DNA of 54,455 nt from an uncultured Gemmatimonadota bacterium (GCA_964626665.1 CAZVGK010000025.1:1-54455), one strand, 5' to 3'; positions 3,814 to 22,349 are shown, counted from the first letter of the stretch. Notes: a model not told the origin generated them from the letters alone. Numbers and translations: made by a program.

Positions 3814-3878
3814 CTGATCACCTCCTCAATCCTTTCTTGATTGTGGGTTAACTAAGAACAAGCTAAAGGTTTCACCTC

Positions 3879-3988
3879 TTACTCTATGACTACCCTCCTC
3901 CCGCATCCCAGGGGACATTGTTGTAGAGAATGGTGAAGGAGGAAGGTGAGCTAAGGGCAAGAGCTACAAATAGATATAGAAAAAACAT
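3879..3988 (-). pseudogene. Collapsed remnant of a secreted MBL-fold paralog
   Basis: RBS AAAGGAG then MFFLYLFVALALSSPSSFTILYNNVPWD, similar to ATITFNNVPFD of 5807..6493, joined out of frame to GRRVVIE* (cf. GVGSVIEI*). Confidence 0.45.
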
Positions 3989-4367
3989 TTCCGCTCCTTT
4001 CAAAGAAAGTCAGTTGTAGGGACCCCGAACTATCGGAGTCCGAGGAGAACGGAGGGACATCCCGACCTGCTTACTCCATGTCGGGACAGGTTCCTGTCTG
4101 TCCCTACAAAGCAAATACGTAAAGCTTTAAATCGGATAAAGATATGCCAATTCGTTATCAATTATGGATAATCCAGGCCAGCCAACCCAGGGCAGCAAAG
4201 CTGCAAAGAATTCAAAGAAGGCATAAAGGTCGCGCGATGTGCTTTTTTAGCATTCTCTCCGCCTACTTTACGAACTATGAGGTTACTTATGGGAAACTCT
4301 GCTCCGAAACAATATCTTGCCAAATTGTGATACATAATAAAAATCTGCTTTCGCCTGCCCCTATTTT

Positions 4368-4859
4368 TCAAAAGGCCTTTTCCAGCGCCTTCCGGAAACA
4401 GCCAAAATGGAGTTCTGGTTGCTCGTCTTTGTTGAAAAACCTTGTATCATCGGCATCATCGCCCGGTTGCAATTCCCCTCCGGTTATCTCTACCAGGTAG
4501 ACAATGACCAGGACTTCACCATATACCCTCGTCCTCTCTAAGTAGACCCCAAGAAGCCGTTTGATCATCCCCTCCATCCCTGTCTCCTCCTTTAACTCCC
4601 GCAGACAGGCCTCCTCAGGTGTCTCCCCCGCCTCCACAAAGCCGGAGGGTGGTGCCCAACTCCCCTTGCCTGGTTCCCTTCCCCTTTTCACTAAGAGGAT
4701 CTTTCCATCCATTATGCCAATGGCCCCCACGGAGGGGAGGGGGTTTTTGTAGGCTATAAACCCACACTGTGGGCAATATCCCCTCCTCTTCCCATCGATC
4801 TCGCCGCTTTGGAGGGGGGTTCCACAGAGGGGGCAAAATCTATAGTCCCTCATCTCCAC
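4368..4859 (-). CDS. NUDIX hydrolase with N-terminal zinc ribbon
   Basis: FCPLCG...CPQCG zinc ribbon and Nudix box GFVEAGETPEEACLRELKEETG. Confidence 0.93.
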   Translation of the reverse strand: MEMRDYRFCPLCGTPLQSGEIDGKRRGYCPQCGFIAYKNPLPSVGAIGIMDGKILLVKRGREPGKGSWAPPSGFVEAGETPEEACLRELKEETGMEGMIKRLLGVYLERTRVYGEVLVIVYLVEITGGELQPGDDADDTRFFNKDEQPELHFGCFRKALEKAF

Positions 4860-5236
4860 CTCTTAAATCCAAGTGATGCTAAGAAGCTCTCATCGGCCTC
4901 CCCGCTAAAGAGGTGTGCCTTATTTCTCTTGGTATCCGAGGAACCAAACCCCTGCACAGGTATCTTTAACCTTTGCTCTAAGTTCTCGGCCACATCCTCC
5001 TCCTCGGCCTCTCCGGTCCAGACATCATTTATGCTGCCATAGAGAAGGAGGTAATCTATATGCCAGAACCTCCTCTTTTTCTCCCTCAAATGCCTTTCGA
5101 TCCTTTGCCTTAAATTTTTCTTAGCAGAACCGACATAGAGATAACAGCCCTGGGGAAAGCGAAACCTCCCCAACTTGCCTATGCGGATCGTTTCCCCCCT
5201 CTCCAGCCATATCTCCAAGATGTAGGTCTTGTCCAC
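4850..5236 (-). CDS. GIY-YIG/Uri superfamily nuclease (DUF123-like)
   Basis: IGKLG..F..G.YLYVGSA, RIERH, WHIDYLL and GFGSSD motifs. Confidence 0.85.
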   Translation of the reverse strand: MDKTYILEIWLERGETIRIGKLGRFRFPQGCYLYVGSAKKNLRQRIERHLREKKRRFWHIDYLLLYGSINDVWTGEAEEEDVAENLEQRLKIPVQGFGSSDTKRNKAHLFSGEADESFLASLGFKRWR

Positions 5237-5237
5237 C

Positions 5238-5810
5238 TCACTCCTCCTCGATCAATTGGGCTCTTCCCCCCACATACCTCCCTAAGGAGACGTAAGAACC
5301 CCCCACATAGAAGATGGGATTGAGAAGTCCCTTCTGTCTCGGTAAGTTTTTTATATACAGTCCACTGGCCACCCTGATGCAGAGCGGAACTCCGACGATT
5401 ATCACCCTCTCCTCGCTGACCTCAAGCATCTCCTTAAGCTTACACTCAATATGGGCGCTGCATTCCTTGATCGATGGTGGATTTACCTTTAAGGAGGGAA
5501 GGGGGGTGAGCCGGGCCTTGGCGAATTCGTCTATCTGAGGGGGGAACCTGATCGCGGTAATCCTCAGCTTGTCAATCAACTCACCGGAGGCGAGGTTAAG
5601 GACAAATTCCTCGGTCTCCTTTATGTTCCTATAAGTATCCCGGGCCTTATCAGTGCCTATGGCAAAGATCAGGGGGTGGTAGGAGACGGGCATCACCATA
5701 CCATAGGGGGCGATATTCCTTACCCCCTTCTTATCCACCGTGGATATGAGGTAGACGGGGAGTGAAGGCGAGCTAATGTTATAATCCGAGAAGGGGATCT
5801 CAATCTTCAT
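5238..5810 (-). CDS. Flavin reductase-like (DIM6/NTAB) protein
   Basis: LISTVD..G.RNIAPY, DTYRNIKETEEFVLN and P.IKEC..HIEC motifs. Confidence 0.88.
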   Translation of the reverse strand: MKIEIPFSDYNISSPSLPVYLISTVDKKGVRNIAPYGMVMPVSYHPLIFAIGTDKARDTYRNIKETEEFVLNLASGELIDKLRITAIRFPPQIDEFAKARLTPLPSLKVNPPSIKECSAHIECKLKEMLEVSEERVIIVGVPLCIRVASGLYIKNLPRQKGLLNPIFYVGGSYVSLGRYVGGRAQLIEEE

Positions 5811-8904: not shown

Positions 8905-9182
8905 AAGATAACCACCTCTTCACTCAGTATTTGTTCCTTGATTATTGGCTTAATTGTCGAATATTCTCCCAAATCAACCTTTTTGCCAAGGGCTTCTTCA
9001 AGTTCCAATTTTAAACCGACGAAGTCAAGTAAACTCATCCTGGCATCAATCTCCACCAAAATATCCACATCGCTATCTGCCCTTGCCTCCCCTCTTACCA
9101 CTGAGCCGAAAATTCCAGCCCTTGTTATATCATATTTCTTAAAAACTGGCAGGATTTTCTTCTTAATCTCTTCTATATTCAC
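8901..9182 (-). CDS. Minimal nucleotidyltransferase (MntA-like antitoxin)
   Basis: IFGSVVRGEARADSDVDILV and LEEALGKKVDL motifs. Confidence 0.9.
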   Translation of the reverse strand: MNIEEIKKKILPVFKKYDITRAGIFGSVVRGEARADSDVDILVEIDARMSLLDFVGLKLELEEALGKKVDLGEYSTIKPIIKEQILSEEVVIL

Positions 9183-9333
9183 CTTTTACCTCCCTCATTA
9201 TTCAAAATATCCCTCACCTCTTCAAACTCAATGTTACCATTCCATATAACGGGTGGCAAATAAACGCAGTTCGTTGGAGGGAGCACGTGGGTTCACTCCT
9301 TAAGCAAATATGTTTAAGAAATAGCGGGGCCAT

Positions 9334-10080
9334 TTATTCACTGGTCTTTTCTGCCACCAATACGATCTTTCCCGATGAGTTCGGAACGAATGAATCGCCG
9401 GTGAAATTACCAAAGATACCTCTGAGGTCAAGGCCGGCATTGCTCACCAGCTCCACCAATTCTTCAACAGGGTATAGCCTCTGATACCTCTCAAATGTGG
9501 GTTCACCATCTCCGTCTGTGAAGCGCAATTTTTCCCTCATCGCTTTGCGGTTGGGTAAAAGGTTCCGCCTTATTTCGATGGTTAATCCATTTCGATCCAC
9601 CTGTTCAAGACCTCGAAAACTGTTCAGGATTCTGGTGCCATTTATGACGGCAATCACGAGTCTGGCTTCCGGTTTCAATGTTTTTGCCATCTCCAGAATG
9701 GTCCCTCGATTCTCGTAGTCATCTTCAAGAAAGCCAAAGGCATCCAGGGATGTAAGCCCATCAAACTTGCCCTGAAAAGGGATCCTTCTCACATCGGCAA
9801 GAACCCAATTTACAGGTAGCACCATCTCATTTGCAAGCCATTTTGCCTCAGAAAGGAGAACACCAGAAAAATCAAGTCCGGTAACTTTAAGGCCTTTTTT
9901 TGCAAAAGCTAAGCTATACCGGCCTTGCCCGCAGCCAACATCGAGCAGACTATTACCTTGGCCAATTTGAAGTAACTCCAGAATAAATGTGGCGCGTTCC
10001 TTCACTTTCTCATCGGATAGGCTAAGCCCCCACCTTCTTAGGTAGGCTTCATCGTAGTATCTCTTTGTCCACTCATTCAT
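9334..10080 (-). CDS. Class I SAM-dependent methyltransferase
   Basis: LLDVGCGQGR, VTGLDFS and ADVR motifs. Confidence 0.88.
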   Translation of the reverse strand: MNEWTKRYYDEAYLRRWGLSLSDEKVKERATFILELLQIGQGNSLLDVGCGQGRYSLAFAKKGLKVTGLDFSGVLLSEAKWLANEMVLPVNWVLADVRRIPFQGKFDGLTSLDAFGFLEDDYENRGTILEMAKTLKPEARLVIAVINGTRILNSFRGLEQVDRNGLTIEIRRNLLPNRKAMREKLRFTDGDGEPTFERYQRLYPVEELVELVSNAGLDLRGIFGNFTGDSFVPNSSGKIVLVAEKTSE

Positions 10081-10119
10081 CTCTACTTTTGCTCTGTCTC
10101 CTCAATGCCACACCATTCC

Positions 10120-11343
10120 CTAACCCTTAACCACCTTCAGGAACTTCCTCTTCCCCACCCTGAGAATGATCTCCCCCCCTAAGGGGACCTCTAGATCAAC
10201 ATCCTCTATCCTCTCCCCGTTAAGGTATATTCCGCCACTTCTGATCATCCTCTTGGCCTCGCCCCCGCTGGAGAGAAGGCCAGTGAGCGTAAGAAGCCTT
10301 ACTATCCAGATATTCGGTTTCTCCCATTTAAGCTGGAAAATAGGGATCTCCTCCGGGAGTCTCCTCCTCTGGAATACCCTCTCAAATTTTGCCTCCGCCT
10401 CCCCGGCTGCCTCCTGGCTATGGTAGAGGGAGACGATCTCAGAAGCCAGCCGTTTTTTGAGCTCCATAGGATTTCGTTGGGGGTCATTGAGTTGACCCCC
10501 TATCTCTGTGAGCTCTTGGGGAGAAAGGGGAAGAAGCAGTTCGAAGTAAGGGTAGATGAGCTCATCAGGGATGGACATCAGCTTGCCAAACATCTCTCCC
10601 GGTTCCTCAGCTACTCCTACATAGTTTCCCAGGCTTTTGCTCATCCTCCTCTTGCCATCCAGCCCCACCAGAACCGGCAGAGTTATAGTCACCTGAGACT
10701 CCTGACCATAGTCCTTCTGTAGGTCCCTGCCCACTAAGAGGTTAAACTTCTGCTCGGTAGCCCCGATCTCTACATCAGCCCTGATGGCTACCGAATCATA
10801 ACCTTGCATCAAGGGGTAAAAGAGCTCATGGATGCTTATAGGGTTCCCCTGAGCGTAACGGTTGGAGAAGTCATCCCTTTCCAATATCCGAGCTACGGTA
10901 TACTTGGCCCCCAACTTCATTATCTCCTCAAAGGACATCTGGGAGAACCACTCCCCATTGTAATGGACCTCGGTCTTTCCCTTGTCCACAACCTTGAAGA
11001 ACTGATCCAAATAGGTCTGTGCATTAAGGGTAACCTCCTCATGGGAGAGCTGGGGCCTGGTCTGGGAACGGCCGCTGGGGTCCCCCACCATCCCGGTATA
11101 ATCCCCCACGATGAGGATCACCTGATGTCCCAAATCCTGAAACTGCCTCAGCTTTCTTAGGCCTATGGTGTGGCCAAGGTGGATGTCGGGAGCGCTGGGG
11201 TCAAACCCTTGTTTCACCCGCAGTGGCCTGCCCTCCTGGAGGGATTTCTCGAGCTTTTTCAGCAGCTCCTCCTCCCTGATGATCTCCACCGTGCCCCCCT
11301 TGATGATCTCCAACTGCCCTTGTGCCTCTAACATTCTCTCCAT
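10120..11343 (-). CDS. tyrS: Tyrosine--tRNA ligase
   Basis: GFDPSAPDIHLGH, YPLMQGYDS, RMSKS and C-terminal S4 domain. Confidence 0.97.
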   Translation of the reverse strand: MERMLEAQGQLEIIKGGTVEIIREEELLKKLEKSLQEGRPLRVKQGFDPSAPDIHLGHTIGLRKLRQFQDLGHQVILIVGDYTGMVGDPSGRSQTRPQLSHEEVTLNAQTYLDQFFKVVDKGKTEVHYNGEWFSQMSFEEIMKLGAKYTVARILERDDFSNRYAQGNPISIHELFYPLMQGYDSVAIRADVEIGATEQKFNLLVGRDLQKDYGQESQVTITLPVLVGLDGKRRMSKSLGNYVGVAEEPGEMFGKLMSIPDELIYPYFELLLPLSPQELTEIGGQLNDPQRNPMELKKRLASEIVSLYHSQEAAGEAEAKFERVFQRRRLPEEIPIFQLKWEKPNIWIVRLLTLTGLLSSGGEAKRMIRSGGIYLNGERIEDVDLEVPLGGEIILRVGKRKFLKVVKG

Positions 11344-11951
11344 TCTTTCCCCCGAAAGAGCTTAGCCGTAAGCGGCGGGACTTTTTTGACAGGATGACAG
11401 GATTTACATGATTTTTATCTCAAATTATGCGAGAAAACACCGAATGACACCGAAGCTACCAAAAAATTATACCGCACATTCTTCCTTGGGAACTCTTGTT
11501 GTTTCAGTGATTTTCGGTGTTTAATGGATGAGGCTGTTTGTTCCGATCATCCTGTCAGTTCTGTCTAAAAATGGAAACCCTTATCTTTCCCAATGTGGAT
11601 GGGCCCAGAATTGGTATGATTAAGCCATTACAAGGATAACGCGGACAAGGCCAAAAAGCAAGCCTTTTTTCCTTCACTTAGGGTAGGCCTTAGCCCTCAA
11701 ATTTTCCCTCTTTGCTTATCAGCGGTTTACGGAATCCAGATTTAAGGGCATTGAGTTCACTGGAATGGCTCAATTTATCGGCCGCGGGGGATAAATTTGA
11801 CTCTCTTAAGTCCGAGGAGAGCGGAGAGGCAAAAGATCTACCCATCTCCGACTTCGTCAGGGCAGGAGCCCTGATGACACGGGAGAAAGGTGAAGAGCGA
11901 GGGTGTAAGGCCAAACAAATGGTTATCCGACCTAAATGGGAAAGAAATCGC

Positions 11952-11979
11952 TTGACAGGCGATGAATTTTTCATATTAT
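11952..11979 (+). promoter_or_regulatory. Putative sigma70 promoter of the 12000 gene
   Basis: TTGACA-16 nt-TATTAT, followed by GGAGG and ATG at 12000. Confidence 0.55.
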
Positions 11980-11999
11980 TTCCCATAATTGGAGGAAGG

Positions 12000-13127
12000 A
12001 TGGCACACGCATATACACCTGGACTGAAGGTTACCGAGAGGGAATTGGTGAGGAAGAAGAGGATCCTTCCCCTTAAGGGGGAGGTGGTGGTTAAGGAGGG
12101 GGATAAGGTCGAGCCCGATAAGGTGGTGGCTCGCACCCATCTCCCCGGCGATGTTATCCCCATCAATGTGGCCAATATCTTGGGCCTTCCCCCTGAAGAT
12201 GTTCCTGAATGTATGAAGAAGAAAGAGGGGGAGGAGGTGGAGAAGGGGGAGGTGATCGCTTCCAGCAAGAGCTTCTTTGGCCTTTTTAAATCTCAGGTAA
12301 AGGCCCCGGTAGGAGGAACGGTGGAGAGCATATCCAATGTCACCGGCCAGGTCCTCCTGAGGGGGGAACCTCTTCCGGTAGAGGTTAAAGCCTACCTGGA
12401 TGGGGAAGTGGTGGAGACCTATCCCCAGGAAGGAATCCTCGTCCAGACCTGGGCTACCTTTATCCAGGGGATATTTGGCATTGGCGGAGAGACCCACGGG
12501 GAGCTGGTCATCCTCTCCGGCAATCCCAGTGAGGTTCTTACCGAGAAGGAGATAGACAAAAACTGCCAGGGAAAGATCCTGGTGGGGGGCAATCTAGTCA
12601 CCTATCAAGCCCTAAAGAAGGCTATTGCGGTAGGCGCCAAAGGGGTAGTGGCCGGTGGATTTAACGACAAGGATCTAAGGGAATTCCTGGGCTATGACTT
12701 AGGGGTCGCCATCACTGGATCTGAGGAGTTAGGGATAACCTTGGTCATCACCGAGGGATTTGGGGAAATTAATATGGCCGAGAAGACATTTGAGCTCTTA
12801 AAATCTAAGGAAGGTAAACTAACCTGCATAAACGGCGCTACCCAGATAAGGGCTGGGGTTATCAGACCGGAGGTGGTTGTTCCCATTAAGGATGGGAAGG
12901 GTGTAGAGGCTAAGTCGGAGGCCGAGAAGGGTATGGGACTAAAGGTGGGAAGCCCGGTGAGGGTGATTAGAGAACCTTACTTCGGCAGGTTGGGCAAGGT
13001 TTCCGCTCTTCCTCCTCAACTGCAGAAGTTGGAAACAGAATCGAAGGCCCGGGTTCTGGAGGTGGAATTTGGGGATGGAAAGAAGGCCATTATCCCCCGA
13101 GCCAATGTGGAGACCATTGAGGAGTAA
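12000..13127 (+). CDS. Conserved hypothetical protein with barrel-sandwich (lipoyl/NqrA/RnfC-N-like) repeats and C-terminal KOW/SH3-like domain
   Basis: Start MAHAYTPGLKV after a strong RBS; VKEGDKVEPDKVVA and KKEGEEVEKGEVIA..VKAPVGGTV hybrid motifs; GLKVGSPVRVIREPYFGRLGKV. Confidence 0.75.
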   Translation: MAHAYTPGLKVTERELVRKKRILPLKGEVVVKEGDKVEPDKVVARTHLPGDVIPINVANILGLPPEDVPECMKKKEGEEVEKGEVIASSKSFFGLFKSQVKAPVGGTVESISNVTGQVLLRGEPLPVEVKAYLDGEVVETYPQEGILVQTWATFIQGIFGIGGETHGELVILSGNPSEVLTEKEIDKNCQGKILVGGNLVTYQALKKAIAVGAKGVVAGGFNDKDLREFLGYDLGVAITGSEELGITLVITEGFGEINMAEKTFELLKSKEGKLTCINGATQIRAGVIRPEVVVPIKDGKGVEAKSEAEKGMGLKVGSPVRVIREPYFGRLGKVSALPPQLQKLETESKARVLEVEFGDGKKAIIPRANVETIEE

Positions 13128-13633
13128 AATCAGAGGAAACTCATCTTTTTCCTATATTTCCTTGAAAGCAGAAAAGTCTATTTTTTGCTTGACAATTCTA
13201 TATCTTTGATGTTAACTTTATATTTTAAATAACAGGATTTCTTTATTTTTTTTGGACAGGCCTAAAGAATAGCGAAGCTTCGCCTTCCCGGCCCGGGACG
13301 AGCAAACCGTCGAGCTATGGCAGCATAAACTGGGCGAAGCTTCGAATGTAAAATTCACCCCGTTAAATTTTTGTAGGTTTCAAAAGGTTAAGTCCTTCTT
13401 CAATTTTTGTTTCGCCTCTAATTTTCTTGGTTGAACCTACTATTTAACGGGGTAAAGAATGTAGAATTAAGAATGAAAAAACCTGCAGCCAAGGGGCCTG
13501 GGTCTAAGCTCATTGTCCACCCTTTTCTCTCTGCCCCCAAAACTTGACATAAATTTTAAGACTTTGCCTTATGAAGATGAATAGTTCCCACATTTGGCTT
13601 CCTCCAACGCCATTTCAGATGTCCAGGCGAAAG

Positions 13634-13982
13634 CAGCTTTCCGAGGCTGCCCTGGAAATCTTGAGTAGGTATGGGAAAGAACATAAACCCTCCAGATCTT
13701 TATTCCCAGGCTCTAAGAAGGAAAAGCATATTACAATCAGAACTGTTCAGCGAATCTTTGAGTCTGCCCGCAAAAATTCAGGGGTCAGAAAAACACTAAG
13801 TGGCTATAGCTTAAGGCATTCATTTGCTATCCATCTACTGGAAAGCTGCATAGACCTTATATTCAAAAACTACAGAAATATATACACATGTTAGTAAAAA
13901 ATCTTTTGGGAACATCGTTAGTCCCTTAGATAATTTAGAGACTATGGGAGTTGAAAATAAATATGAGAAAGAGCAACTATAG
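13634..13982 (+). pseudogene. C-terminal remnant of a tyrosine recombinase (integron-associated/XerD-like)
   Basis: LFPG..HITIRTVQRIF..SG..YSLRHSFAIHLLE.. then a frameshifted SKTTEIYTHVS..IVSPLD; N-terminal half and the IQELLGH box are deleted; catalytic His of HxLR reads Tyr. Confidence 0.85.
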
Positions 13983-13987
13983 TGAAG

Positions 13988-14066
13988 TATATCCGAAGTT
14001 TACTTCGGATATAACACTATATTGGAGGTATATCCGCAGTTAACTGCGGATATAAACGAGTTAGGC
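13988..14066 (+). other. attI-like recombination site
   Basis: Two related 26-bp palindromes (13988-14013, 14029-14054) then core GTTAGGC at 14060, whose extension is complementary to the end of the first cassette. Confidence 0.65.
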
Positions 14067-14098
14067 AAAATAGCAAGGAATGAAAAGATAGAATCAAG

Positions 14099-14485
14099 AT
14101 GAAAGAAATTGATTACAGATTTATTGGCGCCTGTGGTCTATATTGTGGTGAATGTGATATATACCTCGCCTTCAAAAACAACGACCCTCAGCTCAAAGAA
14201 GAAATTGCCAAAGCTCACAATCTCAAAACCTCTTATGTTCATTGTGATGGTTGTTGGGGAGATTTTTCCAAAATATGGGGTATTGAATGGCAGGAAGGTG
14301 GCAAGACCTGCAAAATAAGAAAGTGTGCTGAAAGACATCATATTCATGTATGTATTGAATGTTCAAATTTCCCTTGCCAGATGCTTGATGAATTTCACAA
14401 AACGGGCTATCAGAAGGCAAGGAAAAACCTTTTCAGGATGAAAGAGATTGGCGTGGGGAAATGGCTCAGAGAGATACAGAAGTAA
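14099..14485 (+). CDS. DUF3795 Cys-rich protein (cassette 1)
   Basis: ACGLYCGEC, CDGC, CKIRKCA and CIECSNFPC motifs. Confidence 0.85.
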   Translation: MKEIDYRFIGACGLYCGECDIYLAFKNNDPQLKEEIAKAHNLKTSYVHCDGCWGDFSKIWGIEWQEGGKTCKIRKCAERHHIHVCIECSNFPCQMLDEFHKTGYQKARKNLFRMKEIGVGKWLREIQK

Positions 14486-14494
14486 TGCTACTTC

Positions 14495-14586
14495 GCCTAA
14501 CACAGCATAAAAGGTTCGTGCCTAAAGGCACTCACCCAAATCCTTCGCTAACGCTCATGACTTCTTTTATGCTGGGAACGTTATCT
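14495..14586 (+). other. attC-like site 1
   Basis: GCCTAAC ... GTTATCT with inner inverted repeat CAGCATAAAAG/CTTTTATGCTG. Confidence 0.75.
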
Positions 14587-14626
14587 GCTATTGGCTTAAA
14601 TACACATTAAAGCGCAGGGAGATCGA

Positions 14627-14824
14627 ATGAGGCAACAAGTGATATTTAATACAGATCGACTCGCCAAGCAATTCAAGATTGCAAAAAGCGATTATGAACA
14701 GCTCAAAAGCTCCGTTCGGGAAGAATTTCCTAATGATGAGATGATGTATCAACTACATCTCATGCGCTCTATTCGTTCGTTTGGAGCGAAAAAGAGAGAG
14801 GTAGTCAAGCAGGAAGCAATGTGA
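14627..14824 (+). CDS. Putative antitoxin (cassette 2)
   Basis: 65 aa; 4-bp overlap with the downstream PIN gene. Confidence 0.6.
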   Translation: MRQQVIFNTDRLAKQFKIAKSDYEQLKSSVREEFPNDEMMYQLHLMRSIRSFGAKKREVVKQEAM

Positions 14825-15282
14825 ATACAAGCATACCTCCTAAACGCCTATATCTTGATACATCTGTCATCAGTGCATTCTTTGATCAACGAGCACCTGA
14901 ACGCAAGCGGATGACTGAAGAGTTTTGGCAAAGTCTGAATATCCACAAAGTATTCATCTCAACTCTTGTTCTGGAGGAGTTGGATGCGACGCAGGACTAT
15001 CTACGCACAAAGATGCATGAAAAAGTCAAAGATTTTCCCGTGTTGGAAGTTACTCAAGCTGCAGATGAACTCGCTGAGAGATATATGGACGAAGGTATTT
15101 TCCCAGAAAGATACCGAGACGATGCTGTGCATGTAGCTGTGACGACACCTAACCACATTGGATTCATAGTTAGTTGGAATTTCAAACATTTAGTGAAAGT
15201 ACGGACGCGTAAGGCTGTTAATCTTGCGAATGCTCTGGCTGGTTATCCCTCAATTGAAATCATAGCGCCACCTGAGTTGTAG
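14821..15282 (+). CDS. PIN-domain (VapC-like) toxin (cassette 2)
   Basis: LYLDTSVISA, DDAVHVAV, IVSWNFKHLV and I.IIAPPEL motifs. Confidence 0.88.
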   Translation: MNTSIPPKRLYLDTSVISAFFDQRAPERKRMTEEFWQSLNIHKVFISTLVLEELDATQDYLRTKMHEKVKDFPVLEVTQAADELAERYMDEGIFPERYRDDAVHVAVTTPNHIGFIVSWNFKHLVKVRTRKAVNLANALAGYPSIEIIAPPEL

Positions 15283-15314
15283 GGATGACAGAACGGCGAA
15301 AGGAAGCCCACAGC

Positions 15315-15388
15315 ATCTAACAGCGTGTTTGCGGCTCGCTTCGTTCGCCCAAATGCTTCGCACGTCGCAAAGCCCGATACCGTTATCT
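15315..15388 (+). other. attC-like site 2
   Basis: ATCTAAC ... GTTATCT with inner TTTGCGGC/GTCGCAAA arms. Confidence 0.65.
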
Positions 15389-15429
15389 GACATCCGGCTT
15401 CATAGAGATAGTACAAATGCGGTGTTTTA

Positions 15430-15903
15430 ATGAAAGAATCAATATATCTTGAGACAACAGTTGTAAGCTATTATACTTCTAAACCCAACCGAGACATCAT
15501 AGCTCTTGCTCATCAGGAGATTACACGACAATGGTGGCCTATAGTTATAAGGCAATATAATTTTTTCATCTCTGAGGTTGTAGTTGAAGAAGCTGATTTT
15601 GGTGACGTAGAGGCAGCCAAAAAAAGACTGGAAGAACTAAAAGATATTCCTCATCTGGAATTAAACGATAAGGTTGAGGAAATGGCTCAAGTTTATATGG
15701 AAAGATTGGAGATTCCAGAAAAATCTTTTCGTGATGCTGCTCATCTTGCTGTTGCCTGTGTACATAACATTGATTATCTTGTAACCTGGAATTGTACTCA
15801 TCTTGCTAATGGTGAAGCTATTAAGAAATTGATGAAGATAAATGAATCCCTTGGTATTCATACACCAATTATTTGTACACCAGAAGAGTTAATGGAGGTG
15901 TAA
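15430..15903 (+). CDS. PIN-domain (VapC-like) toxin (cassette 3)
   Basis: IYLETTVVSY, DAAHLAVA, YLVTWNCTHLAN and IICTPEEL motifs. Confidence 0.88.
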   Translation: MKESIYLETTVVSYYTSKPNRDIIALAHQEITRQWWPIVIRQYNFFISEVVVEEADFGDVEAAKKRLEELKDIPHLELNDKVEEMAQVYMERLEIPEKSFRDAAHLAVACVHNIDYLVTWNCTHLANGEAIKKLMKINESLGIHTPIICTPEELMEV

Positions 15904-15906
15904 GCC

Positions 15907-16089
15907 ATGTGGAAAGATCCAATTATTCAAGATGTCCGCAAAGCAGGTGAAGAGCTTGCAAAACAAGCAAATTATGACCTGCACATCTTCTTTCAAAACT
16001 TGCGGAATAATGAAAAGAAACGGAACCCTAAAGTTATTTCAAAAGCGCCGGGTAAAGAGGTGCCTTTAAAGGCGCCAGACGTCAGATAA
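15907..16089 (+). CDS. Putative antitoxin (cassette 3)
   Basis: MWKDPIIQDVRKA..LA..ANYDL, the small-gene type that follows this PIN subfamily; GGAGG RBS. Confidence 0.7.
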   Translation: MWKDPIIQDVRKAGEELAKQANYDLHIFFQNLRNNEKKRNPKVISKAPGKEVPLKAPDVR

Positions 16090-16208
16090 CACAGCATATA
16101 CGCTACGGGCTAATGCCCTGGCCCTCCTGCCTGTGCCGTTGGCACGGCAGACAGGTCGGGACATTGTTCCCTTCGATCGCAACGTCATATATGCTGGAAA
16201 AGTTAGGC
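16084..16208 (+). other. attC-like site 3
   Basis: AGATAAC ... GTTAGGC with inner CAGCATATA/TATATGCTG arms; contains an inserted 30-bp palindrome. Confidence 0.75.
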
Positions 16209-16241
16209 GAAATTGCGTTTAAGTCATAGGATAAAATTATG

Positions 16242-16271
16242 TTGACAAGGCATCATTTGATGTCCTATAAT
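16242..16271 (+). promoter_or_regulatory. Cassette-borne sigma70 promoter with nearby operator-like inverted repeat
   Basis: Perfect TTGACA-18 nt-TATAAT; TGTTC-N9-GAACA just downstream. Confidence 0.65.
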
Positions 16272-16312
16272 ATAAGGCAGTTGTTCCATATAATAGAACA
16301 GAGGATGGGGAC

Positions 16313-16471
16313 ATGTTGATACCAGTTAGAAGAAAAAAAATATTGGAAGTTTTTTTGAAGAGTCCTTTTAAAGAAGTACACCTTAGAGAAATCGCTCGGT
16401 TATCAAAAGTTTCATTGAACAATGTGGACAATTCGCTGCATAAACATAGACATGTACGAAAAACTCTTTGA
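16313..16471 (+). pseudogene. Truncated winged-HTH protein
   Basis: KILEVFLKSPFKEVHLREIARLSKVSLNNV, resembling the wHTH N-terminus of wHTH-nucleotidyltransferase antitoxins; ends after 52 aa. Confidence 0.55.
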
Positions 16472-16742
16472 AGAGACAGGAGTTGACAATTTGCCCTTGG
16501 GTTTCGATTTGAGATTTTCTTTTCCTGCTACAAAACCTAAAGGAGCTGCGCATTTGAGATTTATAAGAGGGAAGAAAAGGGATGTAGATACTTTAATATG
16601 GGAAACCCAAGTTCAATTAGTTGGGGATGACGCACCCAAAGACAAAGATCAAATTATTGATTGGGGAGCTGAAGCACACATATTAACAGATGATTGGTTC
16701 TTTTGGATGATAGAAGGAGAACTATTAGAGAGGTTTGAATGA
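16422..16742 (+). CDS. Hypothetical protein, probably a 5'-truncated fragment
   Basis: 106-aa ORF ending LLERFE with 4-bp overlap into the next gene; no credible RBS. Confidence 0.4.
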   Translation: MWTIRCINIDMYEKLFEETGVDNLPLGFDLRFSFPATKPKGAAHLRFIRGKKRDVDTLIWETQVQLVGDDAPKDKDQIIDWGAEAHILTDDWFFWMIEGELLERFE

Positions 16743-17163
16743 TGCATGAACAAACAATACAAGTCATTACATACCCGGGTTATCCGATTCAATACCCATC
16801 CAGTCCAAGTACAGGTATGGAGGAAATAGATGCGGATATATGGGATAGTTTATTATCTATTTGGATTCGGGAGGATCGGCTTAAGAAACCCTTTTATTAT
16901 AGCTTGATTCCCTTGTTAAAAATTGATTGGTCGTCTGTTTGGCCAGATTTTGAAATAGAAAGCGAAACATCGCTCGAAGAAGTGACAAAAAAATTATCCC
17001 GGGATATATTTCTGAAGAAGATATTGCTATGGAAATGGTAGAACACGATTTCATTGTAAAGATACCACCAAAGAAGAAGTATAAAATACAAGTTCTTGTG
17101 AAAAGTATTAAAAAGGGAGAACCTAGGGTAATTGAATCTAATGAATTTTCGGTTATAGATTAA
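16739..17163 (+). pseudogene. Hypothetical gene, probably frameshifted at an A7 run
   Basis: A shift at 16987-16993 continues as YISEEDIAMEMVEHDFIVKIPPKKKY..ID*, ending 10 bp before the next ATG. Confidence 0.45.
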
Positions 17164-17173
17164 GATACATGCT

Positions 17174-17985
17174 ATGAAAGATTATCCATGGTATGAAGTG
17201 GTTGATGGTGATGAGCTTCTTCAAGGAGATATTATAAATTCATGTCCTCTAATAATCCCGCCAGCTATTTTAAAATCAAATAAATTAGGTTCATCTCCAT
17301 TTTAGTTGATGGCATAGATTATTTATTTACAGATAGTTGCCCAGAATGTGGAATTTGAAAATGGCCAGCTTTTGATCTTTAAAGTTACCTAAATCATTGT
17401 TTTTTAAATTCATAGAGCGGAGAATTTAGTGAAAATCATCAAATGCTAATTGTTTGATTAACACCTGTTTAGCGACCTACAGATTTTGCATCTTCGGGTA
17501 TTGCAAGCGAAATAGTTCGTCATACAACTCCCAATTACTTTATGAGTTACGAAAGATCTGATCAACTAAAATGGAGAAGAACCATAAATTACAGGTTGAG
17601 GTAATCGAATATGATGTAATAGTTATGAGCCAATCTGGCGATCTTGTCGAAAAGAAACTTGAGTCAGTTCTTGTTTGCCCAATCTGGAAGTTAAATGAAT
17701 TTGAAAACAAGAACCCATCTTATAAGAGTCCAAAAATGAAAGAATCATTAAGACGAGGGTATTTGCCAGGTTATCATCTTTTAAATAGATGGATTTGAAA
17801 CAGAGTATTTAGTGGTTGATTTTCGCGGTGTTTATAGTGTTACTTTTGATTTCCTTGTAGAATTAGCCCAAAAGAGGGATAAAAGACTACGTCTATTACC
17901 ACCTTACAGAGAACATTTATCTCAAGCTTTTGCAAGATTCTTTATGAGAGTTGGATTACCTGTTGATATACCTCCTTTCAAGTGA
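17174..17985 (+). pseudogene. Conserved hypothetical gene disrupted by a MITE and a later frameshift
   Basis: MKDYPWYEVV..LLQGD..KSNKL | QVEVIEYDVIVMSQSGDL rejoins in frame once the MITE and one TSD are removed; tail REHLSQAFARFFMRVGLPVDIP* lies in a shifted frame. Confidence 0.8.
17288..17583. mobile_element. 296-bp MITE / internally deleted IS
   Basis: 23-bp TIRs GGTTCATCTCCATTTTAGTTGAT / ATCAACTAAAATGGAGAAGAACC (1 mismatch); 8-bp TSD ATAAATTA at 17280-17287 and 17584-17591. Confidence 0.92.
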
Positions 17986-18006
17986 GGGATATGAAAGGCA
18001 TCACTT

Positions 18007-18089
18007 CAATAACAGAACGTGTCTGGCTACGACTGACCCTCTGCTCAAATTCCTCTTTGGGGAACTTCAATATGCTCGAAACGTTAGGA
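18007..18089 (+). other. Degenerate attC-like site 4
   Basis: CAATAAC ... ATATGCTCGAAACGTTAGGA; right end resembles sites 1 and 3; left arm decayed. Confidence 0.5.
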
Positions 18090-18248
18090 GACATTTTGGA
18101 AAGGGGAATTTGCTTTAGGTTTCACCTCCCCATAGGATTTACTACTCGAACTCCTTAGCTGTGGGAGTTGCCCTTCAGGCCAATTGGACTTGGATGATCA
18201 AACTTTTCAATCAAATTGGGAAAATCTTAATTGAAAGGATAGTATAGG

Positions 18249-19463
18249 ATGGAGAATTCCTTCAGATGGCCAACCATCGTTCTCCTATCATTTTTTGCCC
18301 TCTCAACCCTATTTCTTACCTATGAGGCCCCGGCTCAGATTCAACCGCCCGCCGGGGATAGGCCAGAGGTAGCAGACACCATCCCTCCTCTTCCCCCCAC
18401 CAATCTCCAGGCTGTGGATACCCCTAACGATGCGGGGAAAAGAATTACCCTCACCTGGACCAAATCCCCCGATGATGGCGCTGGAGCAAAGGATGTGAAG
18501 AATTACCAGATTCTAAGGGCAGAAAGGAGGGATGGCCCATACGAGATGATTGCCGAACTGGCCATCGGGGCGGTAAGGTATGTTGATACCACCGCAAAAG
18601 ACGGAGTTGACTACTACTACAAGGTAAGCGTCTCGGATGGAATAAATACCTCCGAGGCCCCTCCCAGCCAGGCGGTGTGCTCCAAAGCTCAGTGGTTTAA
18701 CCTCAAGAGGTTAAATATGCTGATTGCTGGTATTATCCTCTCTCTGGGCATAATCTATTTCATCAATAAGGCTAAAGCTGGAGGGGAACTCTATATCCGC
18801 AAGATAGCGGGACTGGATGCCGTAAATGAGGCCGTGGGACGGGCCACGGAGATGGGGAGAAAGGTATTTTTCATCCCTGGGATTATGGACTTGGACAATG
18901 TTCAGACCATAGCTGGGCTGAGCATTTTGGGGCAGGTGGCCAGGCTTACAGCTGAATACGGGACCGAATTGGAGGTGCCCGTCTGTAGGTCGGTGGTGAT
19001 GGTCACCGGAAGGGAGACGGTCAAGGAGGCCTACCTGGATACTGGCCATCCAGATGCCTACCACGATGAGATCGTTCATTATCTCACAGATGACCAATTC
19101 GGATATGCTGCCGGCGTAGATGGGTTGATGCTCAGGGAGAAGCCGGCAGCCATCTTTTATCAGGGAGCTTTCTATGCTGAATCCCTCATCTTAGCTGAGA
19201 CAGGTTTTTCTGTGGGGGCTATTCAGATCGCCGGGACGGGTATGCCCTCTCAACTGCCGTTTTTCATCACCGCTTGTGATTACACTCTGATAGGAGAGGA
19301 GCTTTTTGCCGCCTCTGCTTATCTCTCTCGGGAACCCAGGTCCCTGGGCAGTATCAAGGGACAGGATTTGGGCAAGGCAATTATTCTGGTAATCCTCATT
19401 TTGGGTGTGGTCCTGGAAACCTTCGGATTCACCGGATTTTCCCAACTTTTCACCACCCAATAG
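18249..19463 (+). CDS. Module gene A1: signal peptide + FN3 + TM + DUF6754-like domain + TM
   Basis: PPTNLQAVDTPNDAG..ITLTW..Y.I.R..YYYKV (FN3); IAGLDAVNEAVGRATEMG; QLPFFITACDYTLIGEE. Confidence 0.85.
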   Translation: MENSFRWPTIVLLSFFALSTLFLTYEAPAQIQPPAGDRPEVADTIPPLPPTNLQAVDTPNDAGKRITLTWTKSPDDGAGAKDVKNYQILRAERRDGPYEMIAELAIGAVRYVDTTAKDGVDYYYKVSVSDGINTSEAPPSQAVCSKAQWFNLKRLNMLIAGIILSLGIIYFINKAKAGGELYIRKIAGLDAVNEAVGRATEMGRKVFFIPGIMDLDNVQTIAGLSILGQVARLTAEYGTELEVPVCRSVVMVTGRETVKEAYLDTGHPDAYHDEIVHYLTDDQFGYAAGVDGLMLREKPAAIFYQGAFYAESLILAETGFSVGAIQIAGTGMPSQLPFFITACDYTLIGEELFAASAYLSREPRSLGSIKGQDLGKAIILVILILGVVLETFGFTGFSQLFTTQ

Positions 19464-19467
19464 CTTT

Positions 19468-19921
19468 AACCTGAATAATTTGTCTGCCACAAAGACACCA
19501 AGACCCAAAGTATTGATCAAGCAAATGTTTACAGATTAAGCAGTGAAACTCAGTTCAATAGATACTACTGGGGCCACTAAATAGGGTCTGTCTGAATTCG
19601 TCATTCCCGCACGCCGTTAGCGGGAATCCATTGCTGATTTTAAGTAGATTCCGGCTTAAAGATTGCCGGAATGACAAGAAATATGGGTATTTCCGGACAG
19701 ACACTAAAAGATTACATGTCATTGCGAGCGCAGCGAAGCAATCCAAACCTTTGAATGGGGGATTAAGACTGTGAGATTGCTTCGTCGCTACGCTCCTCGC
19801 AATGACCAATGAAGTACCAATGTGCAAACTATAATGTGATCTGAGTAATAAAGGTTTTTATGTTTGATTTTCTTAGTGACTTAGAGGCTTTGTGGCCAAA
19901 ATTTTCTGGGTAATTAGGATT
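19468..19921. repeat. Composite intergenic repeat element with nested palindromes
   Basis: AACCTGAATAA..GCCACAAAG.CACCAAG left end and TTTTTTATGTTTGAT..CTTAGTG right part shared with 48050-48443; nested GTCATTCCCGC..GCGGGAATCC and GTCATTGCGAG..CTCGCAATGAC palindromes. Confidence 0.7.
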
Positions 19922-19937
19922 AAGAAAGGGTCGGAAT

Positions 19938-20597
19938 ATGCGTAGGGAAATACCCCTTATTATCACAGGAATAACTGGGATAGCATTTATCATCGCCTAT
20001 TTCATCCCCCATCGCCCGTTCAATCTGATCCAGGACCTGTTCCAAACCTGGTTTCAAATCGTTGCTGCCTTTGCCATCATTTTGGGTGTATTAAACCTGA
20101 TAGTGGTAAATGGCAACAAAGTCTACAGGAAATCGAGAGGATGGGGCTATTCGGTGATTATCATCCTCAGTTTCTTGGTGATGGCAGGCATTGGCACATT
20201 CAATTTTGGGGGCAAGGCCTCCCCCTTAGAGGAGGGCACTCCCTTTATGTATCTTTTTCACAATGTCTATTACCCTCTAGGCAGCACGGTCTTTGCCCTT
20301 TTAGCCTTTTTTGTGGCCTCTGCTTCTTTCCGCGCCTTCAGGGCCCGTAATAAGGAGGCTGCCCTTCTCCTTGTGGCCGCCTTCTTTGTCATGCTGGGAC
20401 GGGTTCCCATAGGTGACTACTTAACCTCCTGGATACCTGTGAATTGGCTGCGGCTTTCTACTATAGCTAACTGGATTATGGCTTACCCCAATATGGCCGC
20501 CCAGAGGGCGATTATGATCGGCATAGCACTGGGAATTATCTCCACCTCCCTGAGGTTGATACTGGGGATAGAAAAATCCTATTTGGGTGGTGAATAG
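19938..20597 (+). CDS. Module gene B1: polytopic membrane protein
   Basis: About 6 hydrophobic helices; LLAFFVASASFRAFRAR, GRVPIG, YPNMAAQRAI and LILGIEKSYLGG motifs. Confidence 0.85.
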   Translation: MRREIPLIITGITGIAFIIAYFIPHRPFNLIQDLFQTWFQIVAAFAIILGVLNLIVVNGNKVYRKSRGWGYSVIIILSFLVMAGIGTFNFGGKASPLEEGTPFMYLFHNVYYPLGSTVFALLAFFVASASFRAFRARNKEAALLLVAAFFVMLGRVPIGDYLTSWIPVNWLRLSTIANWIMAYPNMAAQRAIMIGIALGIISTSLRLILGIEKSYLGGE

Positions 20598-20688
20598 GCA
20601 AAAGAATAACAGCCACCACGGAACCTCACGGAAAAAAGCAATTGAAAATTAAGAATTAAAAATGAGGTTTATGCTGATTCCTACTTTT

Positions 20689-20864
20689 CTGTGCTACAAC
20701 CTTGCAAGATCTTGTTTTTTGGACAAACTTTTTTAACCGCAAAGACGCTAAGATCGCGGAGAAAATAAAAAGCAAAAGAGAGATGAAATAAAACGATTAG
20801 TTAATATTCTTTAAACTTTGCGACTTTGCGGTTAATTATTTTATTGCGACTTTGCCGCGCTGTG
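20689..20864. repeat. Interspersed repeat (GCAAGATCTTGTTTTTT family)
   Basis: Related copies at 28403-28659 and, inverted, at 48115-48358. Confidence 0.7.
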
Positions 20865-20910
20865 CAAGTCCGTGGTTATAGGTGGTGAATAGGCAAAAGG
20901 AGAATAAGGG

Positions 20911-21753
20911 ATGAGAATTCTTGAAAAGACAATGGTTTTAGACCGTCGGATTATCTTTCTCTTAATTGCCGTGGCTGTGGTGGTGCCCCTGTTTATCCCC
21001 TTCCACCTGAAGATGCATCCCACCCCCGCTTCCCAAGGGCTCTATGATGCGGTTGAAAAACTCTCAAAGGGCTCAACAGTAATCATCTCCGGAGAGTATG
21101 ACCCAGGAACCGCACCGGAGATCCAACCGATGGTAAAGGGGGCTTTGAAGCATTGTTTCCGCAAGGGCATCAAAGTCATTCTCATGGGGTTGTGGCCACA
21201 GGGGCCAGCTCTGGAAGCACAAGCCCTACAGGAAGTGCTTGAGGAAACGGAGTTTGAGGAGATGAATCTCCAATATGGCCAGGACTATGTGAACTTGGGT
21301 TATAAGGCTGGTGGGCAAGTTGTTATCCAGTCAATGGGAACCAGCATACCCGCTACCTTTCCCACCGATATGGCAGGCACACCCATAGAGGAGTTATCCC
21401 TAATGAAGGAGATCCGTAACTTTGATGATATCACCTTCATATTGGACTTTTCTGCTGGAGATCCGGGAACGCCATTCTGGGTGATGTTCGCCCATGACAG
21501 ATTTCATGTCCCCATGGCCTCCGGGTGTACTGCGGTTAGTGCTCCTATGCTCTATCCTTACCTCCAGACCGGGCAATTGGCTGGCCTTTTAGGAGGATTA
21601 AAAGGGGCTGCAGATTATGAGTGGTTAACTAAATCACCGGGCACAGGGATTCAATATATGCCTTCCCAATCTATTGCCCATTTGGTTATTGTCATCTTCA
21701 TCATCCTCGGGAACATCGCCTTCTTTGTCACCAGGAAGAAGGGGGAAAGATGA
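20911..21753 (+). CDS. Module gene C1: membrane-anchored protein (N- and C-terminal TM)
   Basis: DRRIIFLL, YDP.T..E..PM, G.DYV.LGYK and LQTGQL.GLLGGLKGAA.YE motifs. Confidence 0.85.
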   Translation: MRILEKTMVLDRRIIFLLIAVAVVVPLFIPFHLKMHPTPASQGLYDAVEKLSKGSTVIISGEYDPGTAPEIQPMVKGALKHCFRKGIKVILMGLWPQGPALEAQALQEVLEETEFEEMNLQYGQDYVNLGYKAGGQVVIQSMGTSIPATFPTDMAGTPIEELSLMKEIRNFDDITFILDFSAGDPGTPFWVMFAHDRFHVPMASGCTAVSAPMLYPYLQTGQLAGLLGGLKGAADYEWLTKSPGTGIQYMPSQSIAHLVIVIFIILGNIAFFVTRKKGER

Positions 21754-22349
21754 GCACAAGTATCGAAGTATGGATTGCTGCTCTGCTAACCCTGGGGATA
21801 TTGAGTTTCCTATACAAAGACAACCCCTTTTATAAGGTCTCCGAATCAATCTTTATTGGGGTCTCCGCAGCATATTGGTTTGTCTATATGATCTATAATG
21901 TGATAAAACCAAACCTGATTGTTAACTTGAGGATGGGACAATGGTGGTATGCCTTTGCCGGCATCTTAGGGATAATGATGTTACTCCGTCTGGTTCCTAA
22001 AATTGGCTGGCTGAGTCGTTGGGCAGTTGCTTTTATGATCGGCACCGGAGCAGGCTTAAATTTCATCGTCTATCTGCAAAGTAATGTGATGAAACAGATA
22101 AAGGGAACTCTGGTCCCTCTCAATTCGATCGGAAATATCGTTATGATAGTCGGAGTAGTCACCGGATTGATCTACTTCTTCTTCTCTGCGGAGCACAAAG
22201 GCTTATTTGGCGGGGCGGCAAAGGTGGGGATTTGGTTCATTATGGTCTCCTTTGGAGCCTCCTTTGGCTATACGGTGATGGCCAGAATTTCCCTTCTCAT
22301 TGGAAGGATGCATTTCCTCTTTAGTGACTGGTTAAGACTTTTACACTGA
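21750..22349 (+). CDS. Module gene D1: polytopic membrane protein
   Basis: SFLYKDNPFYK, YFFFSAEHKG and FGASFGYTVMARISLLIGR motifs. Confidence 0.85.
   Translation: MSTSIEVWIAALLTLGILSFLYKDNPFYKVSESIFIGVSAAYWFVYMIYNVIKPNLIVNLRMGQWWYAFAGILGIMMLLRLVPKIGWLSRWAVAFMIGTGAGLNFIVYLQSNVMKQIKGTLVPLNSIGNIVMIVGVVTGLIYFFFSAEHKGLFGGAAKVGIWFIMVSFGASFGYTVMARISLLIGRMHFLFSDWLRLLH

Follow-up and report, generated by a model that had tools for sequence, protein, structure and literature searches.

The stretch of DNA considered here, referred to below as the window, comprises 54,455 nucleotides (nt) from an uncultured Gemmatimonadota bacterium (GCA_964626665.1 CAZVGK010000025.1:1-54455). It contains a low-GC island (0.32-0.44, compared with 0.50-0.55 in the flanks) lying between two core genes. 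Within this island, and all on the + strand, a dispersed repeat is followed by the remnant of a tyrosine recombinase gene, two palindromes, an attI-like junction and four cassettes with attC-like sites. A first-pass annotation, made from the sequence alone, had proposed that this is a decayed, non-canonical cassette-capture system driven by an Xer-like recombinase which lacks the insertion found in the integron integrase IntI. The features on which the discussion turns are given here; the attC-like sites carry scores from two models, R1 and R2, described further on.

13616..13891, + strand: tyrosine recombinase remnant, first frame, equivalent to residues 240-318 of the homolog P0001; HxLRH motif; PF00589, E 3e-12
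13854..13979, + strand: C-terminal end of the recombinase in another frame, …TTEIYTHV…SPLDNL; TIGR02249 profile positions 292-315
13988..14013: palindrome 1 of the attI-like region, 26 bp, TATATCCGAAGTTTACTTCGGATATA
14029..14054: palindrome 2 of the attI-like region, 26 bp, TATATCCGCAGTTAACTGCGGATATA
14052..14066, + strand: attI-like junction, ATAAACGA/GTTAGGC; predicted crossover G/TT at 14060/14061
14061..14580, + strand: cassette 1, DUF3795 Cys-rich protein, open reading frame (ORF) 14099-14485; PF12675, E 9e-17
14495..14586, + strand: attC1, R'' GCCTAAC … R' GTTATCT, stem CAGCATAAAAG with CTTTTATGCTG; 74.1 (R1) and 71.7 (R2) bits
14581..15382, + strand: cassette 2, an ORF of 65 amino acids (aa) and a 153-aa PIN-like protein; PF01850, 21.1 bits, under the 23.6 cut-off
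15315..15388, + strand: attC2; 50.9 (R1) and 47.3 (R2) bits
15383..16202, + strand: cassette 3, a 157-aa PIN-like protein and a 60-aa ORF; PIN 23.1 bits, just under the cut-off
16084..16208, + strand: attC3, a long form of 125 nt; 29.1 bits, E 0.003 (R1), and 37.6 bits (R2)
16203..18083, + strand: cassette 4, 1.9 kb, several short ORFs plus a fragment from the C-terminus of a TIGR04255-family protein
18007..18089, + strand: attC4, the last site of the array; 51.4 (R1) and 45.6 (R2) bits

The window retains no more than roughly the final third of the recombinase gene. Similarity to the closest intact homolog, P0001 (363 aa), begins at 13622 in a tblastn search and extends over residues 240-318 with 76% identity (80% in another comparison). 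It resumes at 13863-13937, which corresponds to residues 330-354; residues ~319-329 are gone, and the two frames are separated by a frameshift and a small deletion. Among the catalytic motifs the HxLRH and Y regions are retained and the others are deleted. A ~310-bp dispersed repeat (13270-13579) occupies the place expected for the 5' two-thirds of the gene and abuts its truncated end. This copy of the recombinase is dead, having lost its 5' two-thirds beside the repeat element in addition to the frameshift, and therefore any remaining movement of cassettes would need to be carried out in trans by an intact paralog, which is found elsewhere in the source genome (contig C52, locus L001, 479-1552, - strand). 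What is left of the gene matches the IntI profile TIGR02249 only from profile position 230 on (230-279, then the C-terminal tail), whereas Xer profiles continue through the region. Thus, the recombinase remnant does lie upstream of the array on the same strand, its decay is evident, and the stretch ending in HITIRTVQ, from which the first-pass annotation had concluded that the IntI insertion was missing, does lack it.

Directly 3' of the remnant, a real array of four attC-bounded cassettes occupies 14060-18089. The left end of cassette 1, GTTAGGCAAAATAGCA (14060), agrees at 14 of 16 positions with its R'' end, TGCTACTTCGCCTAAC, once the latter is reverse-complemented, and that of cassette 3, GTTATCTGACATCCGGC (15382), is complementary to its R'' end, GCCAGACGTCAGATAAC, at 15 of 17. 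The complementarity of cassette ends claimed by the first-pass annotation is therefore borne out for these two cassettes, and stands above controls in the wider test of flanking sequences given below; it is much weaker in cassettes 2 and 4. The attC3 site was recovered by R1 even though it was absent from the training set of that model. Cassette 4 is compound or decayed and contains a second repeat (17282-17584); model R2 finds no further attC inside it at E <= 5. Judged from its two ORFs, cassette 2 carries a toxin-antitoxin-like pair. The unit at 14060-14503 (cassette 1) recurs in a genome of the same genus with 86% identity, starting exactly at GTTAGGC and lying behind a different cassette remnant. 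Such recurrence, behind another neighbour, is what cassette-wise movement predicts. A search with the L'-R' end motif found this attC type nowhere but in the array of the window, apart from chance-like matches, and a strict regular-expression search for attC, which gave 12 scattered matches, was dropped. In a distantly related genome (G008; contigs C82, C29, C53, C27 and C36), at least five sequences are 82-83% identical to attC1 and others resemble attC3; it is likely to contain large arrays built on this type of attC.

Intact homologs of the recombinase were collected at 80 loci from many phyla. P0001 aligns to TIGR02249 in two pieces (profile positions 2-179 and ~233-314) with a score of 229 bits, and seven homologs score 167-229 bits, all below the cut-off of 265. 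In a ranking of named profiles P0001 matches XerA best, with IntI next at the 229 bits already given. The XerA profile NF040815, with a cut-off of 220, gives 251 for P0001, 239 for P0002 and 221 for P0005; four others, at 204-220, do not pass. The product name given to NF040815 by NCBI is 'site-specific tyrosine recombinase/integron integrase'. Structural comparisons agree with the profiles. P0001 forms one continuous alignment with the XerA structure 4a8e, whereas with VchIntIA/IntI4 (PDB 2a3v) it aligns in two pieces, 24 of its residues facing 66 in the structure. PF00589 spans 162 aa in P0001 as compared with 200 aa in a canonical IntI of the same phylum. The distance from the KGxKxR-type motif to HxLRH is 58-65 residues in 75 of the 80 homologs (the remaining five being not measurable by the patterns used) and 62-65 in the source genome's own Xer paralogs, against 100 in canonical IntI. 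The clade is thus ~40 residues short of IntI, the I2 region being among those missing. All 32 full-length homologs share the catalytic R, K, H-x-x-R, H and Y without exception.

The intact homologs carry an extra N-terminal domain of ~85 aa ahead of the core-binding and catalytic domains, in which two Trp residues are invariant across 34 sequences. Residues 1-84 of P0001 have no Pfam match at E <= 0.01. A phmmer search with the domain against 1.84 billion representatives returned 619 proteins at E <= 0.001, 39 of them at E <= 1e-10; the matches include many contig-end fragments, some recombinases with three to four tandem copies of the domain and some SNF2 helicases. One of the SNF2 matches has three clear HARP repeats (49.5 bits). 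The HARP profile itself (PF07443, cut-off 25 bits) gives 26.5 for P0004, 16.1 for the C52 protein and for P0133, 15.1 for P0131 and 12.8 for P0141. An AlphaFold model of the domain has a mean confidence (pLDDT) of 83 and a ββαββα arrangement. A Foldseek search of this model against the PDB gave no match at E <= 0.001; its upper matches include the HARP domain of SMARCAL1 (4o66; probability 0.82, TM-score 0.43/0.53, E 0.17) and the damage-recognition domain of XPB (probability 0.80-0.87). We assign the domain as HARP-like with moderate confidence. Three to four tandem HARP-like copies, or long N-terminal extensions, are seen in P0141 (789 aa), P0153 (656 aa) and the proteins of loci L038, L043, L044, L054 and L061 (539-610 aa). 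HARP domains bind branched DNA with single- and double-stranded parts.

The linkage between this recombinase and attC arrays extends well beyond the window. In a Nitrospirae metagenome-assembled genome (L009) the gene is followed on one strand by two palindromes, AAACGAGTTAGGCAA, five cassettes with attC sites and then core genes. Model R1 was built from three sites of the window and four from L009, aligned with MAFFT after the window sites had been trimmed to R''…R' and the L009 sites added, and was run against 82 sources (976 kb), where 23 of its 24 matches lie downstream of the gene on the recombinase strand; outside the training loci the figure is 15 of 16. Model R2, refined from a 16-hit alignment and counted at E <= 5, placed 47 of its 48 matches on the + strand downstream of the gene (43 of 44 once the window is set aside), in a search space made up of 558 kb of upstream and 282 kb of downstream flanks. 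The single exception, at L073, is a divergently oriented site upstream of the gene. By our arithmetic, the chance that nine of ten independent loci fall by accident in a compartment forming 15% of the search space is ~4e-7, matches within one array not being independent.

A chain test was also applied, in which a cassette starts at GTTR no more than 300 nt from the stop codon, its first 12 nt are complementary at 9 or more of 12 positions to a later R'', and this R'' belongs to a hairpin ending in the next GTTR. Of the 53 loci having 800 nt or more downstream, 29 tested positive (13 of them for at least two cassettes), compared with 5 (one of them for at least two) among 71 upstream flanks taken in reverse complement. 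The longest chains comprise 12 cassettes in Desulfitobacterium sp. Sab5, a complete genome, and 10 in Flavobacterium enshiense. The array-positive taxa are Nitrospirae, Thermodesulfobacterium, Spirochaetota, Ignavibacteriota, Latescibacterota and a Methanoperedenaceae archaeon, together with Clostridia/Bacillota (Desulfitobacterium, Paenibacillus, Saccharibacillus) and Bacteroidota (Flavobacterium, Algoriphagus, Aquiflexum). A HARP-like N-terminus is present at 26 of the 29 array-positive loci, and at one of the other three the gene is truncated. Wherever the two occur together, the recombinase gene stands at the 5' boundary of the array and is co-oriented with it, never inside it or at its far end. 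The first-pass annotation had named in advance what would speak against its proposal, namely an IntI insertion in the intact homologs or a lack of systematic association with cassette arrays. On the measures given above the homologs are free of the insertion, and they are found systematically before co-oriented attC arrays.

Between gene and array lies a region for which an attI role is predicted: the first cassette begins at the GTT of the junction, and the junction is conserved and, with the palindromes, directly follows the gene. The DNA at 13975-14075 folds with -21.7 kcal/mol (z = -7.4). Equivalent palindromes are found 3' of intact homologs, with a spacer between the arms of 4, 5 or 8 nt, and near-identical junctions follow the homologs at L009 (AAACGA/GTTAGGCAA), L010, L011, L013 and L082 and on a Chryseobacterium plasmid. 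These junctions were taken by reading the downstream sequences, an automatic finder for palindromes plus GTTR having proved too crude. In the source genome the junction 15-mer (with up to two mismatches) is found after palindromes at six places, on C14, C19, C25, C33, C52 and C57, and recombinase sequence lies within 2.5 kb upstream only at the C52 and window junctions. The C52 paralog is followed by three palindromes and ATAAACGA/GTTAGGCG. Some 45 nt past that junction there is a group II intron in the orientation of the array (RF02005, 125 bits; G000:C52 33-266, - strand), inside which the contig ends; some introns of this group are known to target attC sites. In the chain test, the attI-like site on C14 is followed by one cassette and those on C19, C33, C52 and C57 by none (two of them being at contig ends), and further attC sites are present on C22, C33 and C13. 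The co-orientation of gene and array would allow read-through from the recombinase gene into the cassettes.

The palindromes bear on another explanation, in which the double-stranded palindromes are the sole substrate of the recombinase; it would then serve as a resolvase, invertase or regulator and take no part in moving cassettes. They do resemble classical core sites with inverted arms, and P0001 passes the XerA cut-off. Unlike in true core sites, however, the spacer between the arms varies, and this explanation accounts neither for the conserved sequence GAAC(GA)GTTA, which is common to the junction and to the R' ends of the attC sites, nor for the linkage to arrays. We regard it as very improbable.

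The attC sites themselves were compared using 36 distinct examples from many taxa. Standard base pairs fill 91% of the paired cells, as compared with 20-40% when one partner is slid by 1-3 columns; the site alignment was fitted to the model, which favours structure, and the slid controls carry the same bias. Compensatory changes are seen in all 11 pairs of the L stem, and the covariation score is 0.55 against 0.16 in shuffles, none of 500 shuffles reaching 0.55. The TAAC and GTTA cores are nearly invariant. The layout is R'' YTAAC, 1-3 nt, L stem … L stem, 5-6 nt (usually GRAAC) and R' GTTA, whereas a class 1 attC read in the same way (aadA1, one site) has spacers of 6 and 6-7 nt. When R2 was run on a class 1 integron, the true attC sites were matched weakly and at their ends only (11.3 bits, E 0.41). 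Judged from these alignments, the sites have the architecture and core of attC but a distinct, asymmetric geometry.

Some relatives of the recombinase keep different company. At 5 of 53 loci an IS91-type zinc-finger transposase motif lies directly downstream of the gene, and all five recombinases are without the HARP-like domain. A Chryseobacterium plasmid in RefSeq carries an annotated pair of IS91 transposase and recombinase; on the same plasmid a HARP-type recombinase is followed by ATATAAACAA/GTTAGCGG and one cassette. Plasmids of Acinetobacter encode a shorter relative, called TnpF in one record, and in 38 plasmid records (Chryseobacterium, Sphingobium, Persicobacter, Rufibacter and others) an encoded protein covers 80% or more of P0001, so that the platform occurs on plasmids too. 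It could be proposed that the recombinase is part of some other mobile element (an IS91-type transposon, for instance, or an integrative element) which merely targets the attI or attC end of arrays. The IS91-linked relatives, including the RefSeq pair, would fit such a proposal, as would the many contigs that end just past the gene (at 24 of the 80 loci there are <500 nt downstream) and the group II intron after the C52 attI, where another element has evidently targeted the same spot. Against this, no transposase motif is found downstream at the array-linked loci, and no IS91-type transposase ORF is present at 9000-22000 in the window; the gene is always 5' of the array and co-oriented with it, and its upstream neighbours are unrelated core genes. 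The proposal therefore appears quite unlikely.

A quick tree (IQ-TREE, LG+G4, branch support from the Shimodaira-Hasegawa-like approximate likelihood ratio test (SH-aLRT) only) was built from 92 rows, leaving out partial (<270 aa) and internally interrupted genes. The two Xer paralogs of the source genome served as outgroup, and the sampling of IntI was narrow, consisting of seven close relatives, IntI1 and one cyanobacterial IntI. All homologs and IntI fall into one group apart from the source genome's Xer (SH-aLRT 100). Within it the nine IntI rows form one clade (100), which groups with the five IS91-linked recombinases (96), and the array-linked HARP recombinases are scattered over an unresolved backbone. 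The tree would allow IntI to have branched off from this radiation, and on this point it can be read only tentatively, since it does not establish such an origin. The description of the clade as 'Xer-like' in the first-pass annotation needs qualifying accordingly: the recombinases align to Xer proteins with no insertion between, but by profiles and tree they are nearer to IntI than to XerC and XerD.

Taken together, these data suggest, with a probability of about 70%, that an integron-like cassette platform is present in the window as a dead copy, and that in this platform a recombinase clade without the IntI insertion, but with a HARP-like domain, moves the cassettes. An intact platform has three parts. 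The first is the tyrosine recombinase, composed of HARP-like, core-binding and catalytic domains with no IntI insertion. The second is an attI-like site directly 3' of the gene on the same strand, with two to three palindromes and then …AACGA/GTTAGGC, and the third an array of putatively promoter-less cassettes, at the end of each of which stands an imperfect inverted repeat resembling attC. Observed are this anatomy, its systematic linkage across phyla, the conserved structure of the attC stems, the missing insertion and the lack of a canonical IntI in five array-bearing genomes; catalysis, the choice of strand and the part played by the HARP-like domain are predictions. The recombinase would excise cassettes by recombination of attC x attC and insert them by attI x attC at G/TT, as IntI does. 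The HARP-like domain would take over the recognition of folded attC, which in IntI is done by the I2 insertion, and it may do so by reading the conserved asymmetric bulge of 4-5 nt in the attC sites. Our best reading is that the logic of the integron has been kept (attI, attC, cassettes, a tyrosine recombinase and G/TT), with a different recombinase architecture and a different attC geometry.

Several observations weigh against this interpretation. The role of the recombinase in moving cassettes is deduced from linkage; the training set of R2 overlaps with the loci counted, and the models and the chain test were designed on the same data. The chain test is negative at 24 of 53 loci, 12 of them with a HARP domain, though this probably reflects in part incomplete detectors, as several of these loci show a GTTA junction after palindromes. 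Four attI-like sites in the source genome have no recombinase remnant within 2.5 kb, and most members can be assigned to HARP only weakly (16 bits and E 0.008 for the C52 protein, and E 0.17 in Foldseek). The literature, moreover, regards the insertion as required. It is described as necessary for activity by Messier & Roy 2001, as cited in a passage of PMC9668308, and in the abstract of Escudero et al. 2016. In passages of Cury et al. 2016 (PMC4889954), 50 proteins with PF00589 that lack intI_Cterm are reported close to attC sites; four are called 'intermediate between IntI and Xer', and the conclusion drawn is that proteins of this kind are not IntI.

Canonical IntI is also represented in the source genome and its phylum. 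The source genome has no TIGR02249 match over the cut-off in a profile search, but it does contain pseudogene pieces. One of these, on C5 at ~14100-14650, is truncated and frameshifted and bears the insertion signature LPDALDRKYP…WRWQWVFP; two near-identical C-terminal fragments (C59:361-591 and C47:3254-3445) lie within repeated sequence and have an in-frame TAG in the catalytic Y-T-H-V region. Full-score canonical IntIs are encoded in two of seven genomes of the phylum (G004, 485 bits, and G005), so that action in trans by an IntI, past or present, is conceivable in the source genome. These facts, along with R'' and R' cores (YTAAC and GTTA) identical to those of class 1 attC and the reported need for the insertion, lend themselves to another account, in which the array is nothing more than a cluster of attC sites lacking integron-integrases (CALIN), or what is left of a canonical integron. 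An IntI with the insertion, later lost, would have built it, and the adjoining remnant would be an unrelated Xer-type gene. Yet dozens of loci in unrelated phyla repeat the order recombinase, palindromes, GTTA and array on one strand, without any attC upstream. The five genomes with the largest arrays have no TIGR02249 match over the cut-off, their best matches all being split and insertion-less, and this attC type gave no matches in eight loci with canonical IntIs or their fragments, which is weak evidence given how short these loci are. The attC spacers, at 1-3 and 5-6 nt, likewise depart from the 6 and 6-7 nt of the class 1 site. Although it is the most credible of the alternatives, we consider the lost IntI an unlikely explanation.

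If the dead-platform interpretation is extended to all of the loci, known integrons would be one branch of a family of platforms that is far larger and spans more taxa. In Firmicutes, Bacteroidota, Spirochaetota, Nitrospirota, Ignavibacteriota and some Archaea, the uptake and rearrangement of attC cassettes would be the work of HARP-domain recombinases without I2, many CALINs would in fact be complete, the HARP-like domain would be an independent solution to the recognition of folded single-stranded attC, and IntI and the IS91-linked recombinases would be derived offshoots. We offer this joint reading tentatively, judging it a little more apt to fail in some part than to stand whole.

In practice an integron integrase is defined by the IntI insertion. 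IntegronFinder depends on its presence and, according to passages of the 2016 survey (PMC4889954), recombinases without it were explicitly discarded there. The statements that Firmicutes lack complete integrons and that most attC clusters are orphan CALINs can be traced to this insertion filter. The platform appears to be present across phyla thought to lack complete integrons, and its recombinase clade is widespread and apparently undescribed; a full-text search, with subscription journals outside its coverage, found no literature linking a HARP-type or insertion-less recombinase to attC arrays. If a second architecture does serve attC arrays, the known distribution and age of cassette capture widen considerably, a large share of CALINs gain a cognate enzyme, and many 'orphan' arrays could be explained. 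It would also provide a natural experiment in how a tyrosine recombinase reads folded single-stranded DNA without the I2 helix, and the grouping of IntI with IS91-linked recombinases rather than with Xer, if it holds, is of interest for the origin of IntI. For the window alone the finding is modest, amounting to a dead platform with four cassettes.

The remaining features of the island and its borders are the following.

ORF ending at 13127: left core gene, 471 aa (from the ORF listing)
13270..13579, ~310 bp: dispersed repeat, with copies of 81-90% identity on 11 other contigs of the source genome and in two same-genus genomes
17282..17584, ~300 bp: second dispersed repeat, inside cassette 4, with copies 89-92% identical on contigs C11 and C3 of the source genome
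ORF starting at 18249: right core gene, 404 aa (from the ORF listing)

The first repeat is MITE-like (resembling a miniature inverted-repeat transposable element), with the internal inverted repeat ccccgttaaat…atttaacgggg. Past attC4 the GC content goes up from ~0.35 to ~0.52, and the core genome resumes there. The orthologous position in another same-genus genome (L104, G002:C101, reverse complement 2257-5476) is without the island; it holds instead a paralogous copy of the four-gene membrane operon that comes after the island in the window, and the island is therefore strain-specific. No clean empty site for the island was seen in that genome. Just past the 404-aa gene, a segment of ~95 nt (19466-19560) has copies of 78-79% identity in a same-genus genome and in the distant genome G008. 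Rfam gave no match in the window at gathering thresholds, a result that is uninformative here because Rfam apparently has no attC family.

Of the known systems, the reverse (inverted-integrase) chromosomal integrons, such as that of Treponema denticola, are similar in having a recombinase gene that is co-oriented with, and directly upstream of, attI and an array of attC cassettes, with a G/TT core. The reverse and archaeal integrons share in addition mostly promoter-less cassettes, with toxin-antitoxin-like pairs among them. Passages of Ghaly et al. 2022 describe archaeal integrons in which attI is downstream of intI and the IntI domain is present, most of the archaeal arrays being CALINs. The integrases of these reverse and archaeal systems have the IntI-specific domain and pass IntI profiles, whereas the clade described here is without it, has a HARP-like N-terminus and serves sites with asymmetric R-L spacers.

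Canonical IntI (TIGR02249; 2a3v; IntI1) has in common with the clade the core-binding domain, the catalytic residues and the …IYTHV…SPLD tail; it differs in possessing the ~40 residues that include the I2 region, in scoring above the family cut-off and in having no extra N-terminal domain. That conservation of the insertion is incomplete within the integron-like subgroup is stated in a passage of Smyshlyaev et al. 2021. The IS91-associated recombinases share the same insertion-less catalytic core, turned up in the same homolog search and are 47-50% identical to P0001, but they are without the HARP-like N-terminus and have a transposase downstream in place of attI and cassettes. XerA, XerC and XerD resemble the clade in their two-domain fold and continuous catalytic-domain alignment, and P0001 passes the NF040815 cut-off. 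Unlike them, the clade has a HARP-like domain, is present in multiple decaying copies per genome and sits at cassette arrays rather than at dif; the source genome has its separate Xer paralogs on C3 and C23. Finally, the array in the window and those related to it would probably fit the IntegronFinder definition of a CALIN, there being no adjacent intI_Cterm gene, but they differ from a CALIN in that a specific recombinase family adjoins them at a fixed position.

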